Assembly (NCBI GenBank): GCA_964535215.1
Contig: CAZHST010000013.1
Coordinates: 7,758-71,757, forward strand
Origin: an uncultured bacterium
GTDB taxonomy: Bacteria > Methylomirabilota > Methylomirabilia > Methylomirabilales > JACQHM01
Reading direction: 5' to 3'
DNA: 64,000 nt
The notes below the pieces were generated by a model. It ran no database searches and was not told the origin of the DNA. It was given only the letters and a program-made list of their open reading frames with translations. The first letter of the stretch is position 1, and every line of letters starts with the position of its first letter. The translations under genes were made by a program, and so were the position numbers. Positions 17,533 to 30,780 of this stretch are shown piece after piece.

Positions 17533-18561
17533 TTAGGTGGCAGGGACGAGCTCCTCCCTGGAAGCCCCTTTAAAATACGGCATGACAAACTTGGCAAACC
17601 GTTCCATGGACCTGAGGCAACGATCATGGTCCATCGTGACGAAGTTTAAGGTGCAGAGGAGATATGTCAGGCCGATCTCACGCTTCAGTTCCTCAATCTT
17701 CGCGATGCAGGTGTCGGGAGAACCGAAGATGCAGAAATCGTTCAGAAACCGTTCGAAGCTCAAGTTTCCCTCCCCATACCTCTGGCAGAGGGCGGCTTTC
17801 AGATCCGGGGCCTTTTCGTGGATGAAGGCCATAAAGGGACCCTCCACTTCCTCCCGGGCTTTCCGGTCTGTCTCAGCGACATAGAGAAAGCGATTCACCG
17901 GGAGCTCCACCCTGGTCCCGTTATGCCCGGCTTGCTTGTAGGTCTGCCAGTAGAGGTCGAGGGTCCTCTTTAGATCAGGGAGTCGCTGGATCGCTCCGAT
18001 AAAGATAGGGTATCCTCGCAAGGCGGCGTACCGGATTGTCTCTGGCGAGATGGCGACAACGTAAATGGGCGGATGAGGCTTCTGGAAGGGCTTCGGATGA
18101 ACGGACACCTCGGGGATCTTGTAGTACTTCCCCTCATAGGAGAAACGGTTGGTGGTCCAGGCCTGGAGGATCACCTCTAGGGCCTCTTGGAAACGCCCCC
18201 TGGTCTCTTCAAGGGGGACGTGAAAGGCCTGGTGAAATCCCTCATCCAAACCTGCCCTGGTCACCCCAAGATCGAGCCTCCCCCCGCTTAAGATATCCAG
18301 CGTCGCCGCATCTTCAGCGACATGGAGCGGATGGTCGAGGGGGAGGATCTTTGCCGCGGTCCCGATCCTGATCCTGGAGGTCTTGGCGGCAATGGCCGCC
18401 CCCACGTTGAACGGAGAAGGATAGAGGAGGTGGCTGTGGCGGAAGTGCCGCTCTCCCAGCCAGACCCCGTCGAAGGCGAGTTCCTCCGCATACTGGATCT
18501 GATCCAGGATATCATGGTAGGTCCCGGTCCGCGTTCCCATGATGAACAGGCCACACTTCAT
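17533..18561 (-). CDS. LLM class flavin-dependent oxidoreductase (paralog 1)
   Basis: AEEL.FDGVWLGERHF, TSRIRIGT, HPLHVAED.ATLD.LSGGRLDLG and P.QKPHPPI motifs; start moved to ATG 18561 (SD). Confidence 0.88.
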   Translation of the reverse strand: MKCGLFIMGTRTGTYHDILDQIQYAEELAFDGVWLGERHFRHSHLLYPSPFNVGAAIAAKTSRIRIGTAAKILPLDHPLHVAEDAATLDILSGGRLDLGVTRAGLDEGFHQAFHVPLEETRGRFQEALEVILQAWTTNRFSYEGKYYKIPEVSVHPKPFQKPHPPIYVVAISPETIRYAALRGYPIFIGAIQRLPDLKRTLDLYWQTYKQAGHNGTRVELPVNRFLYVAETDRKAREEVEGPFMAFIHEKAPDLKAALCQRYGEGNLSFERFLNDFCIFGSPDTCIAKIEELKREIGLTYLLCTLNFVTMDHDRCLRSMERFAKFVMPYFKGASREELVPAT

Positions 18562-18630
18562 CGGCAGATCCCCTGATCTACAACACGATGCTGGACGTAG
18601 AAAACAGCCCTCCCAGCGGGCATCCGACAC

Positions 18631-19638
18631 CTAACAGCCTTTCCTAAGGTAGGGCATCACATAATTTACGAACCGCTCCATGGACCTCTGGCACTTCTGA
18701 TGGTCGATCGTGTAGTAGTTAAAGGTACAGATCAGGTACCGGAGGTCAATTTCCTCACCAAGCTTCTCAAGACGGGCGATGCAGTAGTCAGGATCCCCAA
18801 AGATACAGACCTCGTTGAAGAGAAGGTCATACGTGATCTCTTCCCGGGGGAGGAAGAGGAAATCTCGGATGACGGAACCGCCCCGGTGGATGAAGGCGGT
18901 GAGGGCCTCCTGGGTGTCCTCGATGGCTTGCTCATTGGTTTCAGCGACGTAAAGGAATCGGTTCACGGGGAGGATCACATCCTCCCGTTTGTACCCGGCT
19001 TCTTCAAGGGCCTTGTAATAATACTCCTGGGTCTCCCTGACAACAGAGACGGTTTGGGCGGCGGCGAGGATCAAGGGGAAACCGCGGGTCGCCCCAAAGG
19101 CCAAGGTCTGGGGGCTGATGCCAACGAGATAGATGGGTGGATGAGGTTTTTGGACTGGCTTTGGGTAAACCGATACCTCAGGGATCCTATAGTAGTTCCC
19201 GTTGTAGGAAAAGCGCTCTTTTGTCCAGGCCAGGAGGAGGATATCCAAAGCCTCCTCAAAACGCTCCCGGCTCTGATCGGTGGTCACGCCGAAAGCCAGT
19301 TGGTAAAGGTCGTTCTCCCCAACCCGAGCGATTCCGAGATCCAGACGTCCATTGCTGATCACATCCACCGTGGAGGCATCCTCGGCAACGTGGATGGGAT
19401 GGTCCAGGGGAAGGATGCGTGAAGCGATGCCGATCCGGATGCGCTCTGTCCTGCCGGCGATGTACGCCGCCGCTACCAGGGGAGACGCGAAGAAGTTCCG
19501 GCCCTGGTGGTCAGGGTGGAAATGGCGTTCACGAAGCCACACGCTATCAAAGCCGGCCTCTTCAGCGTACTCGACCTGGCTCAGGAGATCCGCATAGCTT
19601 GCCGAACCAGACCCTGTTGCGTAAAATCCAAATTTCAT
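18631..19638 (-). CDS. LLM class flavin-dependent oxidoreductase (paralog 2)
   Basis: AEEAGFDSVWLRERHF, TERIRIG, HPIHVAED and P.QKPHPPI motifs; ATG 19638 with SD aaggag. Confidence 0.88.
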   Translation of the reverse strand: MKFGFYATGSGSASYADLLSQVEYAEEAGFDSVWLRERHFHPDHQGRNFFASPLVAAAYIAGRTERIRIGIASRILPLDHPIHVAEDASTVDVISNGRLDLGIARVGENDLYQLAFGVTTDQSRERFEEALDILLLAWTKERFSYNGNYYRIPEVSVYPKPVQKPHPPIYLVGISPQTLAFGATRGFPLILAAAQTVSVVRETQEYYYKALEEAGYKREDVILPVNRFLYVAETNEQAIEDTQEALTAFIHRGGSVIRDFLFLPREEITYDLLFNEVCIFGDPDYCIARLEKLGEEIDLRYLICTFNYYTIDHQKCQRSMERFVNYVMPYLRKGC

Positions 19639-19667
19639 GGATCGTCTCCTTTTTGGCGTTTGAACCC

Positions 19668-20540
19668 TCACCTTGCCCGGTCGGGGAAGTCGCGATTCCT
19701 CACCTTAACCTTGATCTTCTTCACCTCCTCAACGAAGGCGGCGAGATGAGCGGAAAGCTCCTCGAGGATCTTTCGGCCCTTCTCAGGGGTGGCCTGGGAG
19801 GGGAGGGGATCGTCGTGGGCGATGGGGCTGACGAATTCAAAGTCATCCATCCCGAGGAAGATGTTCTCCGCCCCCTGGAACCGGATCGCCATCCCGGTCC
19901 CGGCCCGCTTCGAGAAGGCTGGACCTAGCCACTCAGGTGCGTGGATACGATACGAATGGGCCATATATTCCTTGGAATTGAACTTCTCCCCCAAGAGGAC
20001 CATGGCCATGGCCGCCTCAAAATCACTGGCGAGACGCTCGGGGGAGGAGCCAAGGATACCCTGGACAGCTGCCGTCTCCCGTCCCCCATAGAAGGCCACG
20101 AAGGCCCCAGTTTTGAAACGAAGGGAAAAGAGGACCTCCTCAGCGTTTACCACGTTGAAACTGTGAAAGGACACAAAGATGATCTTGCTAAATCCATGAA
20201 AGATGAGGCTTCGGCCAATATCCTCCAGGACCCTTCGGTAAGTGTCCACCCTCAGGTTGATGGTCCCACACCCTTCGCCGACCCGGCCCATGTGGTGAGG
20301 GGCGTAGCCAAAAGGCATCAAGGGCGTGTAGAGAACATCGGCCCTCTTTGCCGCACGCTCGACCACGGCAAAGCTGACAATCCCATCAAGGCCCAAGGGG
20401 GTGTAAGGATTGCCGTGGCGCTCACAGCTTCCGATAGGGACGAGGATCGTCTCACAGCCCTCATCCAGCTTCCGTCTGATATCCCCCGATCCCAGTTCCT
20501 GGATATTCAGGATCTCTCCATCCTTCCTTTCGGTCGCCAT
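19668..20540 (-). CDS. Creatininase/creatinine amidohydrolase family protein (family that includes MftE)
   Basis: ILVPIGSCERHG...LGLD, P.MPFGYAPHH...GTI and SLIFHGF.KIIFVSFH motifs. Confidence 0.8.
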   Translation of the reverse strand: MATERKDGEILNIQELGSGDIRRKLDEGCETILVPIGSCERHGNPYTPLGLDGIVSFAVVERAAKRADVLYTPLMPFGYAPHHMGRVGEGCGTINLRVDTYRRVLEDIGRSLIFHGFSKIIFVSFHSFNVVNAEEVLFSLRFKTGAFVAFYGGRETAAVQGILGSSPERLASDFEAAMAMVLLGEKFNSKEYMAHSYRIHAPEWLGPAFSKRAGTGMAIRFQGAENIFLGMDDFEFVSPIAHDDPLPSQATPEKGRKILEELSAHLAAFVEEVKKIKVKVRNRDFPDRAR

Positions 20541-20785: not shown

Positions 20786-22183
20786 TCAACGAGGTTTAGG
20801 GATCTTGAACTTCTTTAACCGGTAGCGGAGGGTATCGCGGGTGATCCCTAAAAGTCTTGCAGCCTCAACCTGGTTTCCCCCTGTCTGTTGGAGGGCCCGC
20901 TCGAGCAAGGCCCGCTCCCACTGGGGCAGGCTAATCCCCTCAGGGGGGATCCTCACCACAAGCTCGAGGGGGTTCATCGGCACGGGGGAGGGTTTCTGGA
21001 GCTGGGGGGAGGAGGTGAGGGAGAGGTGCTCCGGTTCAAGGGTCTCCCCCTGACAGGCGAGGACCGCCCGCTCCATGACATGTTTCAACTCCCGCACATT
21101 CCCCGGCCAGTGGTACTGGACCAGGGCCTTGGCCGCTCGGTCGCTGATCCGGGGGATCGGCTTCGCGTATTTGCTGCTGATCCGCTCCAGGAAATACTTG
21201 GCAAGGAGGAGGATGTCCTCCCCTCGCTGGCGAAGGGGAGGGAGGTGGATGGTAAAGACGGCTAAGCGGTAGTACAGCTCCTTTCTGAAGGATCCCTGGG
21301 CAATGGCCTCTTCCAGATGTTTGTTTGTTGCGGCGATGATTCGGGCATCGATCTTCCGATCCCGAAGGCTGCCGATCCGCCGGATCATCCGTTCCTCGAG
21401 GGCCCTTAAGAGCTTCCCCTGAAGGGGGAGCTCCAGGTCGCCGATCTCGTCCAGGAAGAGGGTACCTCCGTTGGCCGCCTCGAACAAGCCCATCTTGGAT
21501 TCCTTGGCATCGGTGAAGGAGCCCTTCTCATAGCCAAAGAGTTCTGCCTCGACCAAGGTTGCTGGCAGGGCGGTACAGTCGATCTCGATAAAAGGCGCCG
21601 ACGCCCGGGAGCTGTTCATGTGGATGGCCCGGGCCACAAGACCCTTGCCTGTTCCTGTCTCACCGGTGATGAGCACCGTGGAGACCTCCTCCAGGGAAGC
21701 GATCTGCCGGATCTGCTGAAAAACCCGTTGCATCTCCTCACACTTGCCGATCAGGCCTTCGAAGGAGAAGGTCCTCGTCTCCCGCTCACGGTAGTAGAAG
21801 AGCTCCTGTCTTAAACGGGAGTCTTCGTGGGCCCGGTTCAGCAGGATCTTCAGCTCGCCCAGGTCCACCGGTTTCTTCAGGTAATCGAAGGCCCCAAGCT
21901 TCATGGCCTCGACCGCTCCCTCGATGGAGCCGTAAGCCGTCATGACGACCACATACATGTGGGGGTCAAACTCCTTCATCCTCTTCAAGAGCTCAATCCC
22001 GCTGATCTTCGGCAACCTCACATCCAGAAAGACCAGATCGGGATGCATGGTCTCGAGAAGACTCAGGGCCTTCTCCCCATCCTCCGCCACCTCAGCCTCG
22101 TAGCCCTGTTCCTCCAGGAAAAGTTTGATGGATCGGGCCAGGGTTTTCTCATCGTCCACGATCAGGATCGTGAAAGGTCCCAT
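20786..22183 (-). CDS. Sigma-54-dependent response regulator (REC, AAA+, Fis-type HTH; NtrC/AtoC-like)
   Basis: REC LDVRLP, Walker A GETGTGKG, GSFTDA loop, LFLDEIG, WPGNVREL, and HTH AARLLGITRDTLRYRL; ATG 22183 with SD. Confidence 0.93.
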   Translation of the reverse strand: MGPFTILIVDDEKTLARSIKLFLEEQGYEAEVAEDGEKALSLLETMHPDLVFLDVRLPKISGIELLKRMKEFDPHMYVVVMTAYGSIEGAVEAMKLGAFDYLKKPVDLGELKILLNRAHEDSRLRQELFYYRERETRTFSFEGLIGKCEEMQRVFQQIRQIASLEEVSTVLITGETGTGKGLVARAIHMNSSRASAPFIEIDCTALPATLVEAELFGYEKGSFTDAKESKMGLFEAANGGTLFLDEIGDLELPLQGKLLRALEERMIRRIGSLRDRKIDARIIAATNKHLEEAIAQGSFRKELYYRLAVFTIHLPPLRQRGEDILLLAKYFLERISSKYAKPIPRISDRAAKALVQYHWPGNVRELKHVMERAVLACQGETLEPEHLSLTSSPQLQKPSPVPMNPLELVVRIPPEGISLPQWERALLERALQQTGGNQVEAARLLGITRDTLRYRLKKFKIPKPR

Positions 22184-22205
22184 GCCTCCTCCCAAGATTT
22201 TCTCC

Positions 22206-23726
22206 TTACGAAGCCCGGACGGGGAGGGTGATCCGTACGGAGGTTCCCTTGCCGGGATCGCTCGTGATCGTCATGGTCCCTTTGTTCTGTTCGACAAAAC
22301 GTTCGGCAATGGCCAAGCCCAAACCCGTCCCATCGGCCTTGGTGGTAAAGAACGGTTCGAACACGTGGGGGAGGGCCTCTTCGGGGATGCCCTCACCGTC
22401 ATCGGTGACCTCAATGGCGACGACTTCTCCCTCACCCTCCCGCCCCATTCCCACGGAGAGCCGAAGGGTCCCCCCCTTGGGCATGGCCTCTAAGGCATTG
22501 GAAATCACCTCCAGGAGGGCCTGTTCGATCTGGGAGGGATCAATCCACACGCTTGGGAGATCAGGTTGAAAGGCGGTCTCGAGCCGGATCTGCTGTTCGG
22601 CCATCTTTTCGGTGAAGATGGTTAGCACACCCTTCACCAGAGGCTCCACCCTCTCGAAGAGGGGGTGAAAGGGGGCTGGCTTGGTAAAATCCAGCAGGTG
22701 GCTGATCCGCTTCTCCAAGCGGTCCACCTCCCCGATGACCGCCCGGAGGTGCTCGGTCAGGGGGCTTTTCTTCGGAAGCTGGTGGAGACTCAACTGGGTC
22801 GCCGCCCGGATACTGGCCAAAGGGTTCCGAAGCCCATGGGCCACGGCGGCCGACATCTGCCCAAGGGAAGCCAGCTTCTCCTTCTGGATGAGCTGGGCCT
22901 GGGTTTCCTTTATGGTCTGGATCTTTTGCTGGAGGTCGGCGTTCAAGCTGGCCATCTCCTCCTGGGTCTTCTTCAGCTTCTTCGTCATCTTGATAAAGGA
23001 CTCGGCCAGCTCACCGATCTCGTCTCGGGATTGGACCTGGATCGCATGATCCAGATGGCCTTCCCCCACAATATCCATGGCCCGCTTCAGTTCCTTGACA
23101 GGTCGGGCGAGGCTCCGGGAGATCAAAACGGAGAAGAGGATGCCAAAAAGGATGGAGGACAAAACGATGAGGATCAAGAGGGTCCTGGTGGACCGTTCGA
23201 TGGCCTCAAGCCTCTGAAAGGCCCGCTGGAGGTTGTGGGTCCTGGAGGTCCTGAAGATTTCCTTGATGACCCCGTCCAGAGCGGGGAGGAGGCGTCCGTT
23301 CAGCTCCTCTTTCGCCAGGCGTAGGGCCTCTTCCTTCCGGTTCTGGTCGTAGAGGTTGAAGGCTCTCACGGCCAGGGCCGCAATCTCCCCGTGGAGCTGT
23401 TCCAGTTCCTGGGCAAGCCGGAGGTCCTCGGGCTCCACAACGGCCTCCTTCCAGGTCTGCATCCTCCGGTGAATCCGGCCGTTCAGGCTCATGAATTGTT
23501 CCTTGGCCCCGCTCTCGAACCCCGTGAGGTAATCCCGGATCTTCCGGATCTGGCGGTAGATCATGGACTCCAGGTCCGAGAAGATCCTGACCCTCGACAG
23601 GCCGTTCTCGAGAGTTTTCAGGGCCCGGTTCTCCTCCCGGATGGTCCAGAGGGTCAGGCCCCCGATGACCATCAGGGGGACGATCATAATGGCAAAGGCC
23701 AGCATGAGCTTCTTTTGAAAGGTCAT
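22206..23726 (-). CDS. Membrane sensor histidine kinase (periplasmic helical sensor, HAMP, HisKA, HATPase)
   Basis: Two TM segments; HAMP DEIGELA; H-box AHGLRNPL; NALEAM, DDGEGI, FEPFFTTK and GTGLGL. Confidence 0.92.
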   Translation of the reverse strand: MTFQKKLMLAFAIMIVPLMVIGGLTLWTIREENRALKTLENGLSRVRIFSDLESMIYRQIRKIRDYLTGFESGAKEQFMSLNGRIHRRMQTWKEAVVEPEDLRLAQELEQLHGEIAALAVRAFNLYDQNRKEEALRLAKEELNGRLLPALDGVIKEIFRTSRTHNLQRAFQRLEAIERSTRTLLILIVLSSILFGILFSVLISRSLARPVKELKRAMDIVGEGHLDHAIQVQSRDEIGELAESFIKMTKKLKKTQEEMASLNADLQQKIQTIKETQAQLIQKEKLASLGQMSAAVAHGLRNPLASIRAATQLSLHQLPKKSPLTEHLRAVIGEVDRLEKRISHLLDFTKPAPFHPLFERVEPLVKGVLTIFTEKMAEQQIRLETAFQPDLPSVWIDPSQIEQALLEVISNALEAMPKGGTLRLSVGMGREGEGEVVAIEVTDDGEGIPEEALPHVFEPFFTTKADGTGLGLAIAERFVEQNKGTMTITSDPGKGTSVRITLPVRAS

Positions 23727-23730
23727 CGTC

Positions 23731-24600
23731 CTACCTGAGAGAAGAGGGAGAGGGGATTCCGTACCGGTCCGTGATCCGTTGAAGGACTCCCTCGTTCCTC
23801 AAACCATTGAGCGTCTGATCGAGGGTCGTTTTCAGGTCCTTGTCCCCCGCCCGAACGGCGATGACAAGGTTCCCCTGACGGCCCGGCTCGGGAACATAGC
23901 TCAGGTATGGGTTCGTGAGGATGATCTCATCGGTACCCACCTGTTCTGCGGGGACCCCCAGGAAGAAATCACAGCGCTTCTGAAGGAGGGAGTTTCCGAG
24001 GGCCCGGGTGAACCCTTTTCGGGTATCCACCCAGAAGTAGTTGGTACGGAGGCCCAAACGCTGGGTGATCTCACGGGCAAGCTCAACATCGAAACCTGTG
24101 GGCTTTGGGTCCTTGGTGGAAAAGGGGGGGTTATTGGGATCCGCACAGACGGTCATGACCCCTGTTTCCTTGGCCTTCGCCAGCGCCCCATAGTGTTGGG
24201 ATCGGAGGTAGGCGATGATCTTCCAGATCTCGTCCGAGGTGATGCGACCAGCGAAGGCGCCCATTTGGGTCCCTGGCCGTCCAGCGGCAATACTTGCGAA
24301 CACGTCCCCATCCCTCCCCCCGAACCGCCAGAAGTCGTCGGTCAGATCAGGGCCTTTTGCCCCTCTGCCCCCTGCTCCGTGGCAGAAGATGCAGAGACGC
24401 TGGTAGAGGACCTTCCCCTCCTCGATTGCACCAGGGTCCCCCTCGAAAGGGTTGGTGAGGCCTGCTGGTTCGTCCTGACCGAAAGCGATTTGCCCCCCGG
24501 GTGGAAAGGGCCAAAAGGTGAAGGCCAGAGGCAAGACGATCATCCCTCCCAGGAGGGCTCTTTTCGGTGGCCAGGCATGAAACGGGCTCTTTCGATGCAT
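23731..24600 (-). CDS. Fusion of an XoxG/MxaG-like cytochrome c and a single-lobe MxaJ/XoxJ-like domain
   Basis: Signal-like N-terminus, CIFCH heme motif, GPDLTDD.W and TQMGAF; then VCADPNNPPFS...CDF...IAVR.GD..LK..LDQ. Confidence 0.8.
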   Translation of the reverse strand: MHRKSPFHAWPPKRALLGGMIVLPLAFTFWPFPPGGQIAFGQDEPAGLTNPFEGDPGAIEEGKVLYQRLCIFCHGAGGRGAKGPDLTDDFWRFGGRDGDVFASIAAGRPGTQMGAFAGRITSDEIWKIIAYLRSQHYGALAKAKETGVMTVCADPNNPPFSTKDPKPTGFDVELAREITQRLGLRTNYFWVDTRKGFTRALGNSLLQKRCDFFLGVPAEQVGTDEIILTNPYLSYVPEPGRQGNLVIAVRAGDKDLKTTLDQTLNGLRNEGVLQRITDRYGIPSPSSLR

Positions 24601-24660
24601 GGGGAACTCCGCCTCCTCCCTTAGAATGCCTCACAAAACTCACCGCCCAGGCCTAAAGGG

Positions 24661-24700
24661 CGCAGAGAAAAACTTGGGACTTTCCTTAGCGTTCTCTGCG
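24661..24700. repeat. Intergenic REP-like inverted repeat
   Basis: cgcagagaa (24661-24669) and ttctctgcg (24692-24700). Confidence 0.45.
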
Positions 24701-24729
24701 TCTCTACGGTTTTGATCGGCGCTCTTAAT

Positions 24730-25632
24730 CTAGTCGAAGGGGGCATAGAACGGCACCCCATATTTTGCCAGGATTTCTCGGACCTGTCCACTCTTTACTA
24801 ACCGATCAATGACCTGATTGATGGCCTCCTTTAAGTCCTGATCCTCCTTTCTCACCGCGATGGCGATGTTCCACCGCATCTCCGGCTCAGGGGTGTATCC
24901 TTCGAGCAGCTTCAGGCCGCTCTCTGGGTGCAACTTGATCCACCATCCGGCGGTCGGGGCCCAAAGGAGGGCCACATCCGGTGCCGGGGAAGGAGCCGGC
25001 GATCCGGGGGGTGACGATATCCACGTTGAGACCCCTGGTGGTGGAACCTCCCCTTTTTGCATCGCCTCGAGGGCTTCCCTTCCGTTGCGGAAGAGGGCCC
25101 GTTTGTAACCCTTGTAGAAGAGGTAGCCGTCGGCCGGGGTCGTCATCTCAACGCCGATCCTTTGGTCTTTGAGCTCCTGCAGACTCCGAATCTCTGGAGC
25201 TCCTCCGCGGACGACCAGCACAAACCCTGTCCCAAAATAGGGCTTGGTGAGCGCTAACCCTTTCTCCTCCATCTCTTCTTCCATTTCCGATCCGGTCGGA
25301 AGTCCCATGAAGAAGTCGCATTTCCTTTGCTGGATTGAGGTTCGGAGGGCCCGCCCAAGCCCACCCCGGGTGCCGGTATCAGCCCAGAAGTAGGTCACCC
25401 GGAGCCCTAAGCTCCTGCCTATTTCATCCGCGATCTCCACGTCGAATCCGGGACTGCCAGGGTTGTTGCTGGAGAAAGGGGGGTTATAGGGATCCACGCA
25501 AGCAATTAAGGAGCCCCGCTCCCTGACCTTCGCCAGGGCGTCTGCATCGGCCAAGGGGGGGCTTATCATCGGAACGACCAGCAACGGCGCAAAGGTCATC
25601 CCCAGAAACCGTAGAGGGTTCACCGTCTCCAT
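24730..25632 (-). CDS. MxaJ/XoxJ-like periplasmic binding protein of quinoprotein module 1
   Basis: ACVDPYNPPFS, GFDVEIA, KCDF and IAIAVRKED..LK.AI motifs; signal peptide from ATG 25632. Confidence 0.82.
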   Translation of the reverse strand: METVNPLRFLGMTFAPLLVVPMISPPLADADALAKVRERGSLIACVDPYNPPFSSNNPGSPGFDVEIADEIGRSLGLRVTYFWADTGTRGGLGRALRTSIQQRKCDFFMGLPTGSEMEEEMEEKGLALTKPYFGTGFVLVVRGGAPEIRSLQELKDQRIGVEMTTPADGYLFYKGYKRALFRNGREALEAMQKGEVPPPGVSTWISSPPGSPAPSPAPDVALLWAPTAGWWIKLHPESGLKLLEGYTPEPEMRWNIAIAVRKEDQDLKEAINQVIDRLVKSGQVREILAKYGVPFYAPFD

Positions 25633-25723: not shown

Positions 25724-27445
25724 TTAGTGGAGGCCAAAGACCACCAGAAGCCCACCCTTCGTGTTGGTCTTCAACCACTCCTTGTAGTAGAGGGGCCAGA
25801 TCCCGCCTCCCCCGGCCCCCGCCACGATGGCCACATACTGCTTCCCCTCAACGGTGAAGGTGGTCGGGTTGCCGTGAATGCCGGTGCCGACGTTAAACCT
25901 CCAAAGCTCCTGACCCGTCGTGTCATCGAAGGCCATGAAGGTGCCCTCAGGGTTCCCGGCAAACACCAACCCGCCGGCGGTGGCGAGGACACCGCTCGTC
26001 ATGGGCATGGCATTATACCGGGTCCAGGCGATCTTCCCGCTGGCGGCATCGATGGCGTGGAGCCAACCATGGCCGGGTTTCAACCGAAGGACCTTGGCAC
26101 CCAGGTACCACTCCCCCCGCCTCCACTCCATCCTCGCGGCCTGGAGGTCCATAGCCATGTTGAAGGCCGGGACGTAGGCCAGGCCAGTCTTCGGGCTATA
26201 GGCAATGGGATGCCACTCCTTCCCCCCGTCCAGGACCGGGGCAACGTCTTCGGTGACCCGATCGTAGACGACATCCTTCTCCGGCCAGTTGAAGATAGGG
26301 CGCCCCTCCCGGGTGAAGCCTTTGTTCCAGTTGATCCGGGAAATGGCCGTCGCGTAGATGAACTTCCCGTTTGTCCGGTCAATGGCGTAGAAGTAACCGT
26401 TCCGGTCGCCGTGGAGCCACACCTTCCGACCCTGCACATCGGCCAGGACCACCTCGTTCACCCCGTCATAGTCATAGGGGTCGTTCGGGGTGTACTGGAA
26501 CCAGAACTTGATCTTGCCCGTGTCAGGGTCCATGGCCAGGGTGCAGTTGGTGTAGAGGTTGTCACCCGGCCGGACATGGCGATCGAAGTCGGGGCCAGGG
26601 TTTCCCACCGGCCAGTAGAGGATGTTCAGTTCAGGATCGTAGGAGCCGGTCACCCAGGCCGAGCCCCCACCGTACTTCCAGGAATCCCCACCCCAGGTCT
26701 CGTTTCCCGGTTCCCCAGGGCCAGGGATTGTGTAGGTCTGCCAGACTTGGTCCCCGGTCTCGGCATCAATGGCCTTGATCCATCCCCGGACGCCGTACTC
26801 GGCCCCTGAGGTCCCGAAGATGATCTTCCCGCGGAGGGCCATGGGCATAATGGTGAAGCTCTCCGAGTACGTGTAGTCCCCATGCTTTTTATCCCAGATG
26901 ACCTCCCCGGTCATGTTGTTCAGGGCGACCACATGGGCATCGAGGGTGGCCAGATAGACCTTGTCCCGGTAAAGGGCCACGCCCCGGTTCACCACGTCGC
27001 AGCAGAGGTGAGGGTAGACATCTCCCGGAAGCTCCCGTTCATACTTCCAGACGATCCTCCCGTTTCTGCCATCCACAGCCAGGACCCGGTTAAAGGAGGT
27101 GGTGACGTAGATCATCCCGTTGATGGCATTGGCCTGGCTATCCTGGCCTTCGACGACACCAAACGAGACGATATACTTCGGCACCAGGTTCCTAACGTTC
27201 CCTTTGTTGATCTGGTCGAGGGGGCTAAACCGGGTGCTGTGATAGTCCCGACCATAGAGGAGCCAGTTATTCGGGTCCTTATCGGCGTTCAGCAGGATCT
27301 CGTCGCTCACGTAGTTCGGGACCTGCTGGGCTTCCAGCACTTCCGGGAGGCCATAGACTTGGGCGGAGACAACAGCCGGTACGCCGACAAAGACAACCGG
27401 CAGGAGGAACAGGCCAAGAAGCATCCGCCTCTCTTTGGTCTTCAT
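25724..27445 (-). CDS. PQQ-type alcohol dehydrogenase 1, lanthanide-type (XoxF/PedH/ExaF-like)
   Basis: Signal peptide; vicinal CC in LCCDVVNRG; GAEY, GNP and YDYDGVNE (D-x-D at 26465-26473); beta-propeller W/GxG repeats. Confidence 0.9.
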   Translation of the reverse strand: MKTKERRMLLGLFLLPVVFVGVPAVVSAQVYGLPEVLEAQQVPNYVSDEILLNADKDPNNWLLYGRDYHSTRFSPLDQINKGNVRNLVPKYIVSFGVVEGQDSQANAINGMIYVTTSFNRVLAVDGRNGRIVWKYERELPGDVYPHLCCDVVNRGVALYRDKVYLATLDAHVVALNNMTGEVIWDKKHGDYTYSESFTIMPMALRGKIIFGTSGAEYGVRGWIKAIDAETGDQVWQTYTIPGPGEPGNETWGGDSWKYGGGSAWVTGSYDPELNILYWPVGNPGPDFDRHVRPGDNLYTNCTLAMDPDTGKIKFWFQYTPNDPYDYDGVNEVVLADVQGRKVWLHGDRNGYFYAIDRTNGKFIYATAISRINWNKGFTREGRPIFNWPEKDVVYDRVTEDVAPVLDGGKEWHPIAYSPKTGLAYVPAFNMAMDLQAARMEWRRGEWYLGAKVLRLKPGHGWLHAIDAASGKIAWTRYNAMPMTSGVLATAGGLVFAGNPEGTFMAFDDTTGQELWRFNVGTGIHGNPTTFTVEGKQYVAIVAGAGGGGIWPLYYKEWLKTNTKGGLLVVFGLH

Positions 27446-27603
27446 TGTTTCCTCCTCATACCTTCTCGTGAACAGCGCTCAACACTCTCCCTAGCTCTCT
27501 TGGGCCCAACCCCCTTCCACCCCCTTTCAGATCCTAAGCTCCTTGCTGAAGGGAGGTTCCTTCCCCATTATTAGCCGTACCAATCCCTGGCCGAGGTAGT
27601 TTA

Positions 27604-27632
27604 AATTTACAACACTGTTCTATTTCAGTCAA
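27604..27632 (-). promoter_or_regulatory. Sigma-70-type promoter for dehydrogenase 1
   Basis: TTGACT-N17-TAAATT; the spacer contains the palindrome AACAGTGTT. Confidence 0.6.
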
Positions 27633-27695
27633 GAAAAATACCACTGATCCCCCCAGAGCCGGCACCAGTCGGCGTCTGAGGGGACCAGGGGGGAT

Positions 27696-28082
27696 CTACC
27701 GGAGGACCTTTGAAGGGTCTCCCCGAGACTTGGACCGGATATAGGCGATGATCTTCCAGATCTGGTCAGGGGTCAGCTTTCCCTCCCATGGCGGCATGAG
27801 CGTCCCCGGACGGCCTCGGCTGATGGTTTTAAACAGCATGCCATCGGTTGGCTGGTACCTCCAGACGTCATCCGTGAGATCTGGACCCGTCCCACCTTCC
27901 GCGTTTAAGCCGTGGCAGTTATGGCAACCGGTGGCGAGGTAAAGCTGGTGTCCTTCGGCAATGGCCTTAGGATCTCCCGTATACGGATTCTTGTCATCCT
28001 CCTGAGCCGTGGTGATTGCCGTGGCCAAAATCCCTATGGCCAGCCCTCCAGCAAGAATCATCCCTCGGTCCCATCGTCTCAT
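27696..28082 (-). CDS. Cytochrome c (XoxG/MxaG cL-like or c550)
   Basis: Signal peptide; NPY.GD..AI.EG; CHNCH; GPDLTDD.W.Y; axial Met in TLMPPW. Confidence 0.88.
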   Translation of the reverse strand: MRRWDRGMILAGGLAIGILATAITTAQEDDKNPYTGDPKAIAEGHQLYLATGCHNCHGLNAEGGTGPDLTDDVWRYQPTDGMLFKTISRGRPGTLMPPWEGKLTPDQIWKIIAYIRSKSRGDPSKVLR

Positions 28083-28092
28083 CGTCTAGGCC

Positions 28093-28902
28093 TCATCCCT
28101 CAAAGGGGGGATAGAAAGGAATCCCATATTTGGCCAGGATCCGCTCAATGGTTCCATCCTTCAAGAGCGTTTCCACAGCTCCATCAATGACCTCCTTTAA
28201 ATCCTGGTCTTCCTTTCGGATTCCAATCGCCACGTTGGTTCTGAGTTCTGGATCCGGGTGATACCTGTCGGCGATCTTTACCCTCAGGGAGGGATCGGTC
28301 CGCTTCAACCATCCAAAGGTGGGAGCCCAGAGGAGGCCGGCTCTGAGCTCCCCCTTCTGGATGGCCTGGAGAAGAGCCCTCGGATCTCGGTACTGACGGA
28401 CCTGATACCCTCTTTGGAAGAGGACCCGATAGGGTCTGGTCCACACCTCAACCCCCACGGGGGTTCCCTTCAAGGCCTCCAGGGGAGGTGTCGCCTCGTC
28501 CTCGCGGAGCACGAGAACGTAGGCTCCTCCATAATAGGGCCGGGAGAACATCAGCTCCTCGCCGGCCCATTCCCCTACCGGAAGGCCCATGAAGAGATCG
28601 CAGCTCTTCTGGGCCAAGAGCCCGCGTCTGATCGCCCGCTCGGTGAAGTAGGTCTCGTTCCAGTGGAGCTGGAGCCGGATCCTGAGATGCGCAGCAATGG
28701 CCTGGGCGATCTCGATGTCGAACCCTGGGCGGGTGGGATCATCCATCGAGTAGGGGGGATTGTCTGGGTCCACGCAGATGCGGAGGATACCCGAGGCCTT
28801 GATCCTCTCCCAGGTCCCCAGCTGGGCCAAAACATCGGAGAGGGCCGGACCTCCAACGAGGAGGAGCCCCGCCATCAGGATCGAGACCTTCACCGTTTCC
28901 AA
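28093..28902 (-). CDS. MxaJ/XoxJ-like periplasmic binding protein of quinoprotein module 2
   Basis: ICVDPDNPPYS, GFDIEIA, SCDLFMG, LLWAP and IGIRKED motifs; signal peptide. Confidence 0.82.
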   Translation of the reverse strand: METVKVSILMAGLLLVGGPALSDVLAQLGTWERIKASGILRICVDPDNPPYSMDDPTRPGFDIEIAQAIAAHLRIRLQLHWNETYFTERAIRRGLLAQKSCDLFMGLPVGEWAGEELMFSRPYYGGAYVLVLREDEATPPLEALKGTPVGVEVWTRPYRVLFQRGYQVRQYRDPRALLQAIQKGELRAGLLWAPTFGWLKRTDPSLRVKIADRYHPDPELRTNVAIGIRKEDQDLKEVIDGAVETLLKDGTIERILAKYGIPFYPPFEG

Positions 28903-28921
28903 TCCTACATGGCTTGGCGCG

Positions 28922-30622
28922 TTAGTCCATCAGCCCAAAGACGAAGAGGGCCCCACCCTTGGTGTTCTCTTTCAACCAGGGGGCACACCCCCCACCCATC
29001 GTCTGCCATCCGATCCAGCCACCCCACCCTGAGACGATAGCCACGTACTGCTTGCCATCAACGGTGAAGGTGGTGGGGCTCCCCTTGATCCCGGAACCGG
29101 TCTGGAACTTCCAGAGGAGCTCGCCGGTCTTGGCATCGAAGGCCAGGAATTCCCCCTCCGGATTCCCCGTGAAGACCAATCCCCCTCCTGTCGCCATCAC
29201 ACCGGCGTACATCGGAGAACGGTTGTTCCAGACCCAGGCTGTTTTCCCGGTGGCCACATCAATGGCCTTTAGCGCCCCGTGGCCCGGATGGTACGCCAGG
29301 AGCTCCGCGCCCAAGTAAAACTGCCCCCTCCTCGGCTCCTCAAACTTGGCCTGCATATCCATGGTGCACTGGAAAGTCGGGACGTAGGCGTACCCGGTCT
29401 GGGGGCTGTAAGCCATTGGCACGGTCTCCTTCCCCCCTTCCAAAGATGGGGAGATGTTCCTCGTCACCCGATCTCGATAGACGAACTTCTCCGGGTTCAC
29501 GATCGGCCGGCCGGTGACGGGATCTAACCCCTTGGCCCAGTTAATAGGAGAAAGAGGGGTCGCATAGATGAACTTCCCGTTCGTCCGGTCAATGGCATAA
29601 AAGTAGCCATTTCGATCGGCATGGACCCAGGCCTTCCGTCCCTTGATATCTACCAGAATCACCTCGTTCGCCCCATCATAGTCCCAGACATCATGGGGGG
29701 TATACTGGAAGTAGAACTTGATCTTCCCGGTGTCCGGATCGAGGGCCAGGGTCGAGTTTGTATAGAGGTTGTCGCCGGGCCTGACCTCGCCGTCCAGATC
29801 AGGCGTTGGGTTTCCAACCCCCCAGTAGAGGATGTTCAGCTCGGGATCGTAAGAGCCTGTGAGGTAGGTAGAGCCGCCCCCGTACATCCAGGCGTCCCCT
29901 GATCCCCACGTCTCGTTCCCAGGCTCCCCAGGGGCAGGGATCGTGTAGGTCTTCCAAACACTTGCCCCGGTCTCCGCGTCAAAGGCCTGGATAAAGAGGC
30001 GGGTCGGATACTCGGCCCCTGAGGTGCCCACGATGATTTTCCCCCGTAAGGGGAGGGGGGCCACCGTCGTCGTATAGCCCCCGGTATAGTCCTCAAATTT
30101 GACATCCCAGATCACTTTACCGGTCTTGGCATCCAACGCGACAAGGTGCTCATCCAGCGTGGCCATATAGACTTTATCCCTGTACAGGGCAACTCCCCTG
30201 TTCAAGACATCACAGCAGAGATACCGGGTGATGTCCTCCGGGAGGGGATGGTAGTAGCGCCAGAGCACTTTTCCCGTTCGGCCATCCAAGGCGAAGAGCC
30301 GGTTCCAAGACGAGGTGACATAGAGCACCCCGTTATTGGCCATCGCCTGGCTGTTTTGGCCATCGAGGACCCCAAACTGGAAGACCCATTTGGGGACGAG
30401 CTTCTTCACATTGCTGGTGTTAATTTGGGCGAGGGGACTGAAGCGGGTGCTGGCGTAGTCCCGACCATAGAAAAACCAGTTGTGGGGATCCTTCTCGGCG
30501 TTCAAGAGCATCTCATCCGTGACATAGATCGGCTCAGCCTGCGCCGCGGCGACGGCCGGTACCGTGAAGAGGGTCAGGAGCGCCAGGATGAACCATCGAA
30601 AGCCTGGGTTCAATGGATTCAT
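28922..30622 (-). CDS. PQQ-type alcohol dehydrogenase 2, lanthanide-type
   Basis: Signal peptide; LCCDVLNRG, GAEY, GNP, TPHDVWDYDGANE (D-x-D at 29675-29683) and HADRNG. Confidence 0.9.
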   Translation of the reverse strand: MNPLNPGFRWFILALLTLFTVPAVAAAQAEPIYVTDEMLLNAEKDPHNWFFYGRDYASTRFSPLAQINTSNVKKLVPKWVFQFGVLDGQNSQAMANNGVLYVTSSWNRLFALDGRTGKVLWRYYHPLPEDITRYLCCDVLNRGVALYRDKVYMATLDEHLVALDAKTGKVIWDVKFEDYTGGYTTTVAPLPLRGKIIVGTSGAEYPTRLFIQAFDAETGASVWKTYTIPAPGEPGNETWGSGDAWMYGGGSTYLTGSYDPELNILYWGVGNPTPDLDGEVRPGDNLYTNSTLALDPDTGKIKFYFQYTPHDVWDYDGANEVILVDIKGRKAWVHADRNGYFYAIDRTNGKFIYATPLSPINWAKGLDPVTGRPIVNPEKFVYRDRVTRNISPSLEGGKETVPMAYSPQTGYAYVPTFQCTMDMQAKFEEPRRGQFYLGAELLAYHPGHGALKAIDVATGKTAWVWNNRSPMYAGVMATGGGLVFTGNPEGEFLAFDAKTGELLWKFQTGSGIKGSPTTFTVDGKQYVAIVSGWGGWIGWQTMGGGCAPWLKENTKGGALFVFGLMD

Positions 30623-30751: not shown

Positions 30752-30780
30752 CTTCTACAACACAGTTTTATTCTTGTCAA
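30752..30780 (-). promoter_or_regulatory. Sigma-70-type promoter for dehydrogenase 2
   Basis: TTGACA-N17-TAGAAG; the spacer aataaaactgtgttg mirrors that of dehydrogenase 1. Confidence 0.6.

Follow-up and report, generated by a model that had tools for sequence, protein, structure and literature searches.

What does a cytochrome do with one half of a binding protein? The question is raised by a gene on the minus strand of a 64,000-nucleotide stretch of contig CAZHST010000013.1 (assembly GCA_964535215.1; hereafter the window) from an uncultured bacterium of the NC10/Methylomirabilota. The gene, here called GJ′ (23731..24600, stop codon 23731-23733), encodes a periplasmic protein of 289 residues in which a c-type cytochrome is followed by a single lobe of a XoxJ/MxaJ (J) domain, J′. 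Next to it are the genes for a pyrroloquinoline quinone (PQQ) alcohol dehydrogenase (ADH2) and for a complete, two-lobed J protein (J2). An earlier reading of the stretch (the original prediction) held that the second lobe of J′ had been cleanly deleted and that the remaining lobe docks the cytochrome on the dehydrogenase. The reading favored here, given a probability of about 0.6 as a whole, is that GJ′ is a periplasmic XoxG-like electron acceptor of ADH2, that its lobe-1 module folds autonomously, is under selection and probably serves protein-protein contact, and that J2 keeps the two-lobed role; much less confidence attaches to the contact clause taken by itself.

The loss of lobe 2 is precise. 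J′ passes the Pfam model SBP_bac_3 (PF00497) with 47.4 bits against a gathering threshold of 26.4, and positions 2-130 of the 132 in the model cover residues 150-281 unbroken; the same positions stretch over 221-251 residues in J1 and J2, the two stand-alone J proteins of the window. In a junction alignment of 14 sequences (four one-lobed proteins and ten two-lobed J domains), all four one-lobed proteins pass straight from the column of L233 to that of S234, whereas every two-lobed J has 83-113 residues in between (111 in J2, 88 in J1). J2 reads LTKPYFG-(111 residues)-YTPEPEMRWNIAIAVR at this point, and the contracted string LTNPYLS-YVPEP-GRQGNLVIAVR of J′ and its full-J counterpart are present as first described. 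On the DNA the junction L233|S234 falls at 23901..23902. It joins the N-terminal segment of lobe 1 (residues 141-233; 23902..24180), which ends ...LTNPYL, to the C-terminal segment (residues 234-289; 23734..23901), made up of the SYVPEP...NLVIAVR strand and two helices, both segments being delimited by alignments and structure prediction. The two lobe-1 cysteines, C152 (24145-24147) and C210 (23971-23973), are invariant alignment columns, and the 289-residue open reading frame (ORF) runs without interruption. The original claims of a clean deletion, an intact frame and two retained cysteines are thereby borne out. J′ does not have the two-lobed fold of a class II binding protein, lobe 1 alone being present, and the removed segment is the continuous lobe 2, between the two hinge crossings. 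The deletion lies far beyond chance because exactly the continuous domain is gone and what is left corresponds collinearly to lobe-1 constructs obtained by engineering.

Those constructs also bear on whether the half domain can fold. By sequence, J′ is collinear with the engineered lobe-1-only LAO domain A (6XKS) and TmArgBP domain 1 (6Y16, 7A99, 6GPC). An AlphaFold2 model of GJ′, built on a 15-row alignment, gives predicted local distance difference test (pLDDT) values of ~80-94 across most of the J′ region, with blocks of 65-92 in residues 141-233 and 88-94 in the C-terminal segment as far as residue ~280; disorder is predicted for the signal region (pLDDT <50). The top Foldseek matches of the J′ model are the same isolated-domain structures, with template modeling scores of 0.71-0.77 normalized to the target. 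The engineered domains share the topology of J′, their N- and C-terminal lobe-1 segments being joined directly, but they are laboratory constructs of amino-acid binding proteins, whereas J′ arose naturally, by deletion in a J-family protein, and is tethered to a cytochrome. The isolated discontinuous domain of LAO is stable and native-like and retains ligand binding (bioRxiv 10.1101/2023.03.18.532921). Judged by prediction and precedent, then, J′ appears to be an autonomously folding, self-contained α/β domain; structure prediction had been named beforehand as a test, and it returned a confident fold.

Could the gene be an assembly artefact, a chimera or a recent pseudogene? That reading is already refuted. 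GJ′ occurs nearly word for word in four subsurface-metagenome runs, and contigs of three of them (X1, X2 and X4) cross the junction without gaps and with at most one mismatch. A search that covered 5.8 billion proteins returned three proteins of 289-297 residues with the GJ′ architecture, 75-90% identical overall and 72-91% identical to J′ over the lobe-1 columns. Four further loci from different samples (JGI 3300003892, JGI 3300010938, SRR22388028 and ERR15087770), L085 among them, have the same junction and the gene order dehydrogenase-J-GJ′-histidine kinase(-response regulator), the regulator being of the sigma-54 type; in three of the four the J part is 72-91% identical. The succession of dehydrogenase, J and GJ′ recurs in L001 and L085. 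Restriction of the fusion to one assembly had been named as fatal to the original prediction, and these loci dispose of that concern. The frame is intact and, as described below, under purifying selection. An exact-sequence look-up of the GJ′ protein gave no record. In an exhaustive profile search of 1.84 billion representatives, the one-lobed form appears among the best 150 of 9748 matches in one 50%-identity cluster only (P0001); more distant one-lobed J forms may lie beyond these 150. A 281-residue ORF on the opposite strand (23779-24624) is taken to be only a shadow cast by the GC-rich coding strand, since both the homology and the evidence of selection belong wholly to the minus frame.

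Selection was measured as the ratio of nonsynonymous to synonymous substitution rates (dN/dS) by the Nei-Gojobori method, with dS reaching about 1. The J′ half gives 0.13-0.27 in all six pairs compared, beside 0.08-0.13 for the cytochrome domain of GJ′, 0.12-0.16 for J2, 0.15-0.17 for the adjacent histidine kinase and 0.09-0.10 for ADH2; the ratio is relaxed in residues 1-41 (0.17-0.62). The low values of J′, like those of J2 and the kinase, therefore indicate purifying selection of ordinary strength on the half domain. They also bear on the proposal that the half J has no function in interaction and is a remnant tolerated structurally, left when a stand-alone J took over its role and the fused copy lost lobe 2. 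On this view lobe 1 would stay only because its removal would destabilize or misfold the cytochrome, or because it serves as a solubility or spacer domain. Such a history fits with the complete J that is always encoded just upstream, with the lack of a conserved charge signature, and with the different ways in which cytochrome-fused J domains erode by lineage, lobe 1 being partly lost in Methylacidiphilum and the erosion being worse in P0091. Ratios as low as those of J2 and the kinase, at dS near 1, speak for selection on the sequence and not mere tolerance, although dN/dS cannot tell structural from functional constraint. The remnant proposal is on balance rather unlikely.

The half domain favored here as a selected module is carried by a cytochrome of the cL/XoxG type. 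The ORF has an ATG start preceded by a Shine-Dalgarno-like GGGAGGAGG. Residues 1-41 (24478..24600), with the hydrophobic stretch ALLGGMIVLPLAFTFWPF and a possible AFG|Q cleavage site, read as a signal peptide or anchor, so that the protein would be exported and perhaps cleaved. The mono-haem cytochrome c domain follows (residues 42-140; 24181..24477). Within it, residues 58-134 match Cytochrome_CBB3 (PF13442, E=1.3e-12) and Cytochrom_C (PF00034, E=8.2e-10), and matches in the PDB include cytochromes cL/c551i (1mg2, 2c8s, 2d0w; E=1e-11 to 5e-8). The domain combines a class I cytochrome c fold with a single CxxCH haem c motif, CIFCH at residues 70-74 (24379-24393), to which haem is presumably attached; M113 (24262-24264) is the candidate methionine ligand, and the methionine of PGTQMGAF is conserved. 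A short linker leads from this domain into J′, and beyond CIFCH the protein reads ...ILTNPYLSYVPEPGRQGNLVIAVR...

The presumed electron donor is ADH2 (25724..27445, minus strand), a PQQ alcohol dehydrogenase of the methanol/ethanol family. Both dehydrogenases of the window, ADH2 and its paralogue ADH1, pass the TIGR03075 cutoff of 480 (607 bits for ADH2), and their best PDB matches are the lanthanide enzyme PedH (6zcv/6zcw) and XoxF (4mae). The ADH2 motif YDYDGVNE aligns with WDYDGVNE of 4mae, and in both enzymes DYD takes the place of the DFS or DYA of calcium enzymes; the aspartate of the DYD motif is the lanthanide-coordinating residue. ADH2, J2 and GJ′ are contiguous, so that the cytochrome gene is clustered with those of a PQQ dehydrogenase and a J protein, as in the XoxG family. 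The exported cytochrome would most likely take its electrons from the adjacent ADH2. J2, by its homology with MxaJ, is presumably still the two-lobed helper that opens the dehydrogenase so that PQQ can be inserted; selection would retain the tethered half J as a module accessory to the cytochrome. We infer this electron transfer, the order of events set out next and, above all, the docking role considered further on.

How did a cytochrome come to carry one lobe? In locus L003 a 386-residue protein joins the same cytochrome to a complete two-lobed J, and further full-length fusions of this order (G→J) are P0014 (382 residues) and P0068. These proteins combine the same two domain families in one periplasmic polypeptide and, unlike GJ′, keep both lobes. 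Over lobe 1, J′ is 53-62% identical to L003 and 50-56% to P0014, compared with 44-50% to J2 and 38-40% to J1; identity to the J of P0068 is only 25-35%. A run common to J′ and the full-length G→J relatives, FWVDTRKG..RALGNSLLQKRCDFF, is long and identical with L003. Fusion before deletion is favored because the full-length G→J relatives are, on average, the closest lobe-1 relatives. Most likely, then, the cytochrome was joined first to a complete J, a form still found in relatives, and the continuous lobe 2 would afterwards have been cut out exactly at the two hinge crossings, so that a self-contained α/β domain was left.

Fusions in the opposite order (J→G) also keep both lobes. They number dozens in the profile search (P0006, P0011, P0017 and others) and are found downstream of XoxF in Vicinamibacterales genomes. 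In loci L019-L084 (Vicinamibacterales and other Acidobacteriota XoxF loci, ~7.7-9.2 kb each), XoxF is followed by a single gene for a complete J with a C-terminal cytochrome c. This arrangement after XoxF is widespread, and no discussion of it was met in the literature surveyed. One J→G fusion of 201 residues (P0091) has a J that is worn down further, with the first β-α-β-α and the C-terminal helices remaining; P0091 may represent a further natural truncation or simply a faulty gene prediction. In L087:6110-7045, P0007 and P0009 the cytochrome after J is ~300 residues long, with a second CxxCH and an extra C-terminal domain, so that several kinds of C-terminal extension have been gained in this cytochrome lineage.

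A cytochrome fused to a truncated J has been met before. Methylacidiphilum strains carry the order xoxF-xoxJ-xoxG:J, and the product, cytochrome cGJ, is described as XoxG fused to a truncated XoxJ (Versantvoort et al. 2019, as cited in PMC8498564 and PMC6688271); cGJ is cited as the experimentally established physiological acceptor of XoxF (PMC8498564; bioRxiv 10.1101/2023.10.26.563981). Methylacidiphilum loci were retrieved with the XoxF sequence of Methylacidiphilum fumariolicum SolV and the proteins compared directly. The likeness to GJ′ is close: an N-terminal XoxG-type cytochrome c and a C-terminal truncated XoxJ form one polypeptide of similar size (292 residues in cGJ, 289 in GJ′), the gene follows those for the dehydrogenase and a stand-alone, complete J (xoxF-xoxJ-xoxGJ in L006), and the cytochrome domains are 40% identical. 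The J parts differ. Residues 118-263 of cGJ align by BLASTP with residues 75-227 of XoxJ, that is, with the last strand of the N-terminal lobe-1 part and the whole of lobe 2; hhalign likewise places the C-terminal part of cGJ on the lobe-2 columns (probability 94.7%), and the lobe-1 Pfam model finds no match in cGJ. The retained lobe is thus lobe 2 in cGJ and a complete lobe 1, with no lobe 2, in GJ′, and the two truncations are not homologous. No significant alignment was obtained between the two J parts, and the truncations in the two lineages are therefore independent. The hosts differ as well (Verrucomicrobiota for cGJ), and the partner enzyme of GJ′ is nearer to PedH than to XoxF2. The concept of a cytochrome with a truncated XoxJ is already published; what is new here is retention of the opposite lobe, which yields a natural one-lobed class II domain. 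The lobe-2-keeping type also occurs outside Verrucomicrobiota: in an uncultured Acidobacteriota metagenome-assembled genome (MAG), L009:7712-8701 encodes such a protein, preceded by the genes for a separate J and for a XoxF that shares 71% identity with the SolV enzyme.

Does lobe 1 still do what a J protein does? The original prediction called the function of XoxJ/MxaJ unresolved, which no longer holds for MxaJ: it is described as a PQQ-insertion chaperone that pulls the “roof sheet” of MxaF away so that PQQ can enter (PMC12276312). The cryo-EM complex shows that it touches MxaF mainly through loop L8 (R161, N162, Y164) and also through Q225, and it is displaced from MxaF by the small subunit MxaI (PMC12276312). 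The XoxJ/MxaJ proteins (6ONP; 9ISM/9ISO; PMC12276312) share with J′ a homologous lobe 1, two conserved cysteines and a gene beside a PQQ dehydrogenase. They are two-lobed and stand alone, whereas GJ′ has one lobe fused to a cytochrome and no L8 (RNQY) position. The L8 residues (R194, N195 and Y197 in the numbering of 9ism_B) lie in the lobe-2 insertion; Q225 (Q258 in 9ism_B) is on the strand just past the second hinge, where GJ′ has L245. That GJ′ should itself still be an MxaJ-like PQQ-insertion chaperone is very improbable. Its homology to J proteins and the kept post-hinge strand, with the position equivalent to Q225, are offset by the absence of the entire lobe 2, and with it of the site where the L8 loop takes hold of the MxaF roof sheet, and by the intact J encoded next door.

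A related proposal, judged quite unlikely, makes the half J a competitive hand-over device: seated on part of the J site, it would drive off the stand-alone J once PQQ is loaded and at once bring the haem to the PQQ funnel. If true, such a device would have been built twice from opposite halves of J, in cGJ and in the NC10 protein, with a one-lobed binding-protein domain as protein-protein adaptor, and release of the chaperone would be coupled to docking of the cytochrome in enzymes with no small subunit. To our knowledge, lanthanide-type dehydrogenases are enzymes without the small subunit MxaI.

The half J might instead be a ligand-binding or signaling module, binding either a small molecule or the periplasmic sensor domain of the downstream histidine kinase and so coupling dehydrogenase activity to regulation. 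The isolated discontinuous domains of LAO and TmArgBP still bind ligand (6gpc and 6y16 are ligand-bound forms of domain 1), and GJ′ and the kinase gene are tightly coupled (4 nt) and syntenic in all loci. There is, against this, no known ligand of any J protein, and the kinase and regulator pair is simply explained as the regulator of the operon. A ligand or signaling role is accordingly regarded as improbable.

The best guess for the accessory module remains protein-protein contact: the half J would help the cytochrome to find its partner or to stay on it. For the truncated XoxJ part of the Methylacidiphilum XoxGJ, docking to the dehydrogenase has already been speculated upon in print (PMC6688271), and the idea in the original prediction is to that extent not new. 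Several findings weigh against the favored reading or its contact clause. The position of the L8 loop (R-N-x-Y) went with lobe 2 in GJ′, and the L8 insertion is absent from J1 and J2 of the window as well. With lobe 2 kept in cGJ and lobe 1 in GJ′ there is no shared retained surface, and the two natural truncations therefore point to no single docking surface. Charge complementarity between the basic J′ of the window (isoelectric point about 9) and the acidic ADH2 was considered as support for docking and dropped, since P0002 and P0003 show no such shift over the matched lobe-1 columns; across the four orthologues the net charge of J′ is not consistently shifted. At the family level, GJ′ scores 53.4 bits against the NCBIfam model TIGR03872 (cytochrome_MoxG; cutoff 147.8), 25.8 against TIGR03870 (MoxJ; cutoff 258.1) and 67.9 against TIGR03871 (MoxJ_2; cutoff 212.15). 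The margin of the G→J fusions over some stand-alone J proteins is modest, identity of J′ to the stand-alone J of L088 being 47-56%, and no RNA runs with the GJ′ gene could be listed. The stand-alone cytochrome G1 of the window likewise falls under the TIGR03872 cutoff (75.2 bits), and the nearest NCBIfam relation of J′ is the quinoprotein-dehydrogenase-associated MoxJ_2, below its cutoff. Given the missing L8 and the opposite choice of lobe in Methylacidiphilum, docking of lobe 1 on the dehydrogenase is therefore possible, with no positive support from these comparisons.

The surroundings of GJ′ consist of two tandem paralogous clusters on the minus strand, ADH1-J1-G1 and ADH2-J2-GJ′. The upstream cluster comprises ADH1 (28922..30622), a lanthanide-type PQQ alcohol dehydrogenase with the motif WDYDGANE, the stand-alone two-lobed J1 (28093..28902; lobe 2 at 28264-28530) and the stand-alone cL/XoxG-type cytochrome c G1 (27696..28082). 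The stand-alone two-lobed J2 (24730..25632; lobe 2 at 24898-25233), identified by Pfam, NCBIfam and alignment, lies directly upstream of GJ′. A dehydrogenase-J-cytochrome cluster is thus duplicated (25724-30622; the ADH genes are 71-75% identical in nucleotides), with the half-J fusion in the second copy only. In loci with relatives at a greater distance from ADH2 (70-73%), the dehydrogenase, J and a separate cytochrome simply follow one another. J1 and J2 score 109-113 bits, under the MoxJ and MoxJ_2 cutoffs; these scores and the absence of the L8 insertion (..RNQY..) mark them as a divergent J subfamily. Lobe 2 of J2 carries a 23-residue Pro/Ser-rich insertion, PPPGVSTWISSPPGSPAPSPAPD (24976-25044, minus strand), which is also present in its orthologues, the J of L001 and P0019, and is not found in J1 or other J proteins.

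Downstream, on the same strand, the sensor histidine kinase gene (22206..23726; 4HB_MCP-like/HAMP/HisKA/HATPase) starts 4 nt past the stop codon of GJ′ and keeps this synteny in every orthologous locus. It is followed by the gene of a sigma-54-dependent response regulator (20786..22195; Response_reg/Sigma54_activat/HTH_8). A creatininase-family gene and two luciferase-like monooxygenase genes come after the regulator (17533-20540, minus strand) and are syntenic in L085. Both ADH genes are preceded by a common sigma-70-like promoter block, TTGAC[T/A]..AATA.AAC[A/T]GTGTTGTA (~27606-27632 and ~30754-30780, minus strand); inspection by eye, without a promoter scan, revealed no sigma-54 consensus upstream of either, even though the regulator encoded downstream is of the sigma-54 type. 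Between J2 and GJ′, a 47-nt piece (24682-24728) recurs, with three mismatches, on further contigs from the same metagenome runs and may be a short dispersed element; an overlapping 47-mer (24665-24711) occurs a single time within the window. Leucyl-tRNA synthetase assigns the organism to NC10/Methylomirabilota, being 73% identical to that of Methylomirabilales MAGs and 68-70% identical to that of Candidatus Methylomirabilis species.

What would follow for the J family? Were the half J structural ballast only, GJ′ would be a modest case of domain erosion after gene fusion. J′ is also a rare natural class II binding protein cut down to its discontinuous lobe, and it matches the laboratory constructs made for the study of fold evolution. 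If the lobe-1 remnant has a defined partner, nature has provided a dissection of J, in which one lineage keeps lobe 1 and another lobe 2 on the same kind of cytochrome, each with an intact J encoded next door. Comparison of these lineages could then show which surfaces of J touch lanthanide-dependent dehydrogenases, how the chaperone is released from enzymes that have no small subunit, and whether tethering aids electron transfer, a practical bottleneck in assays with native cytochromes.

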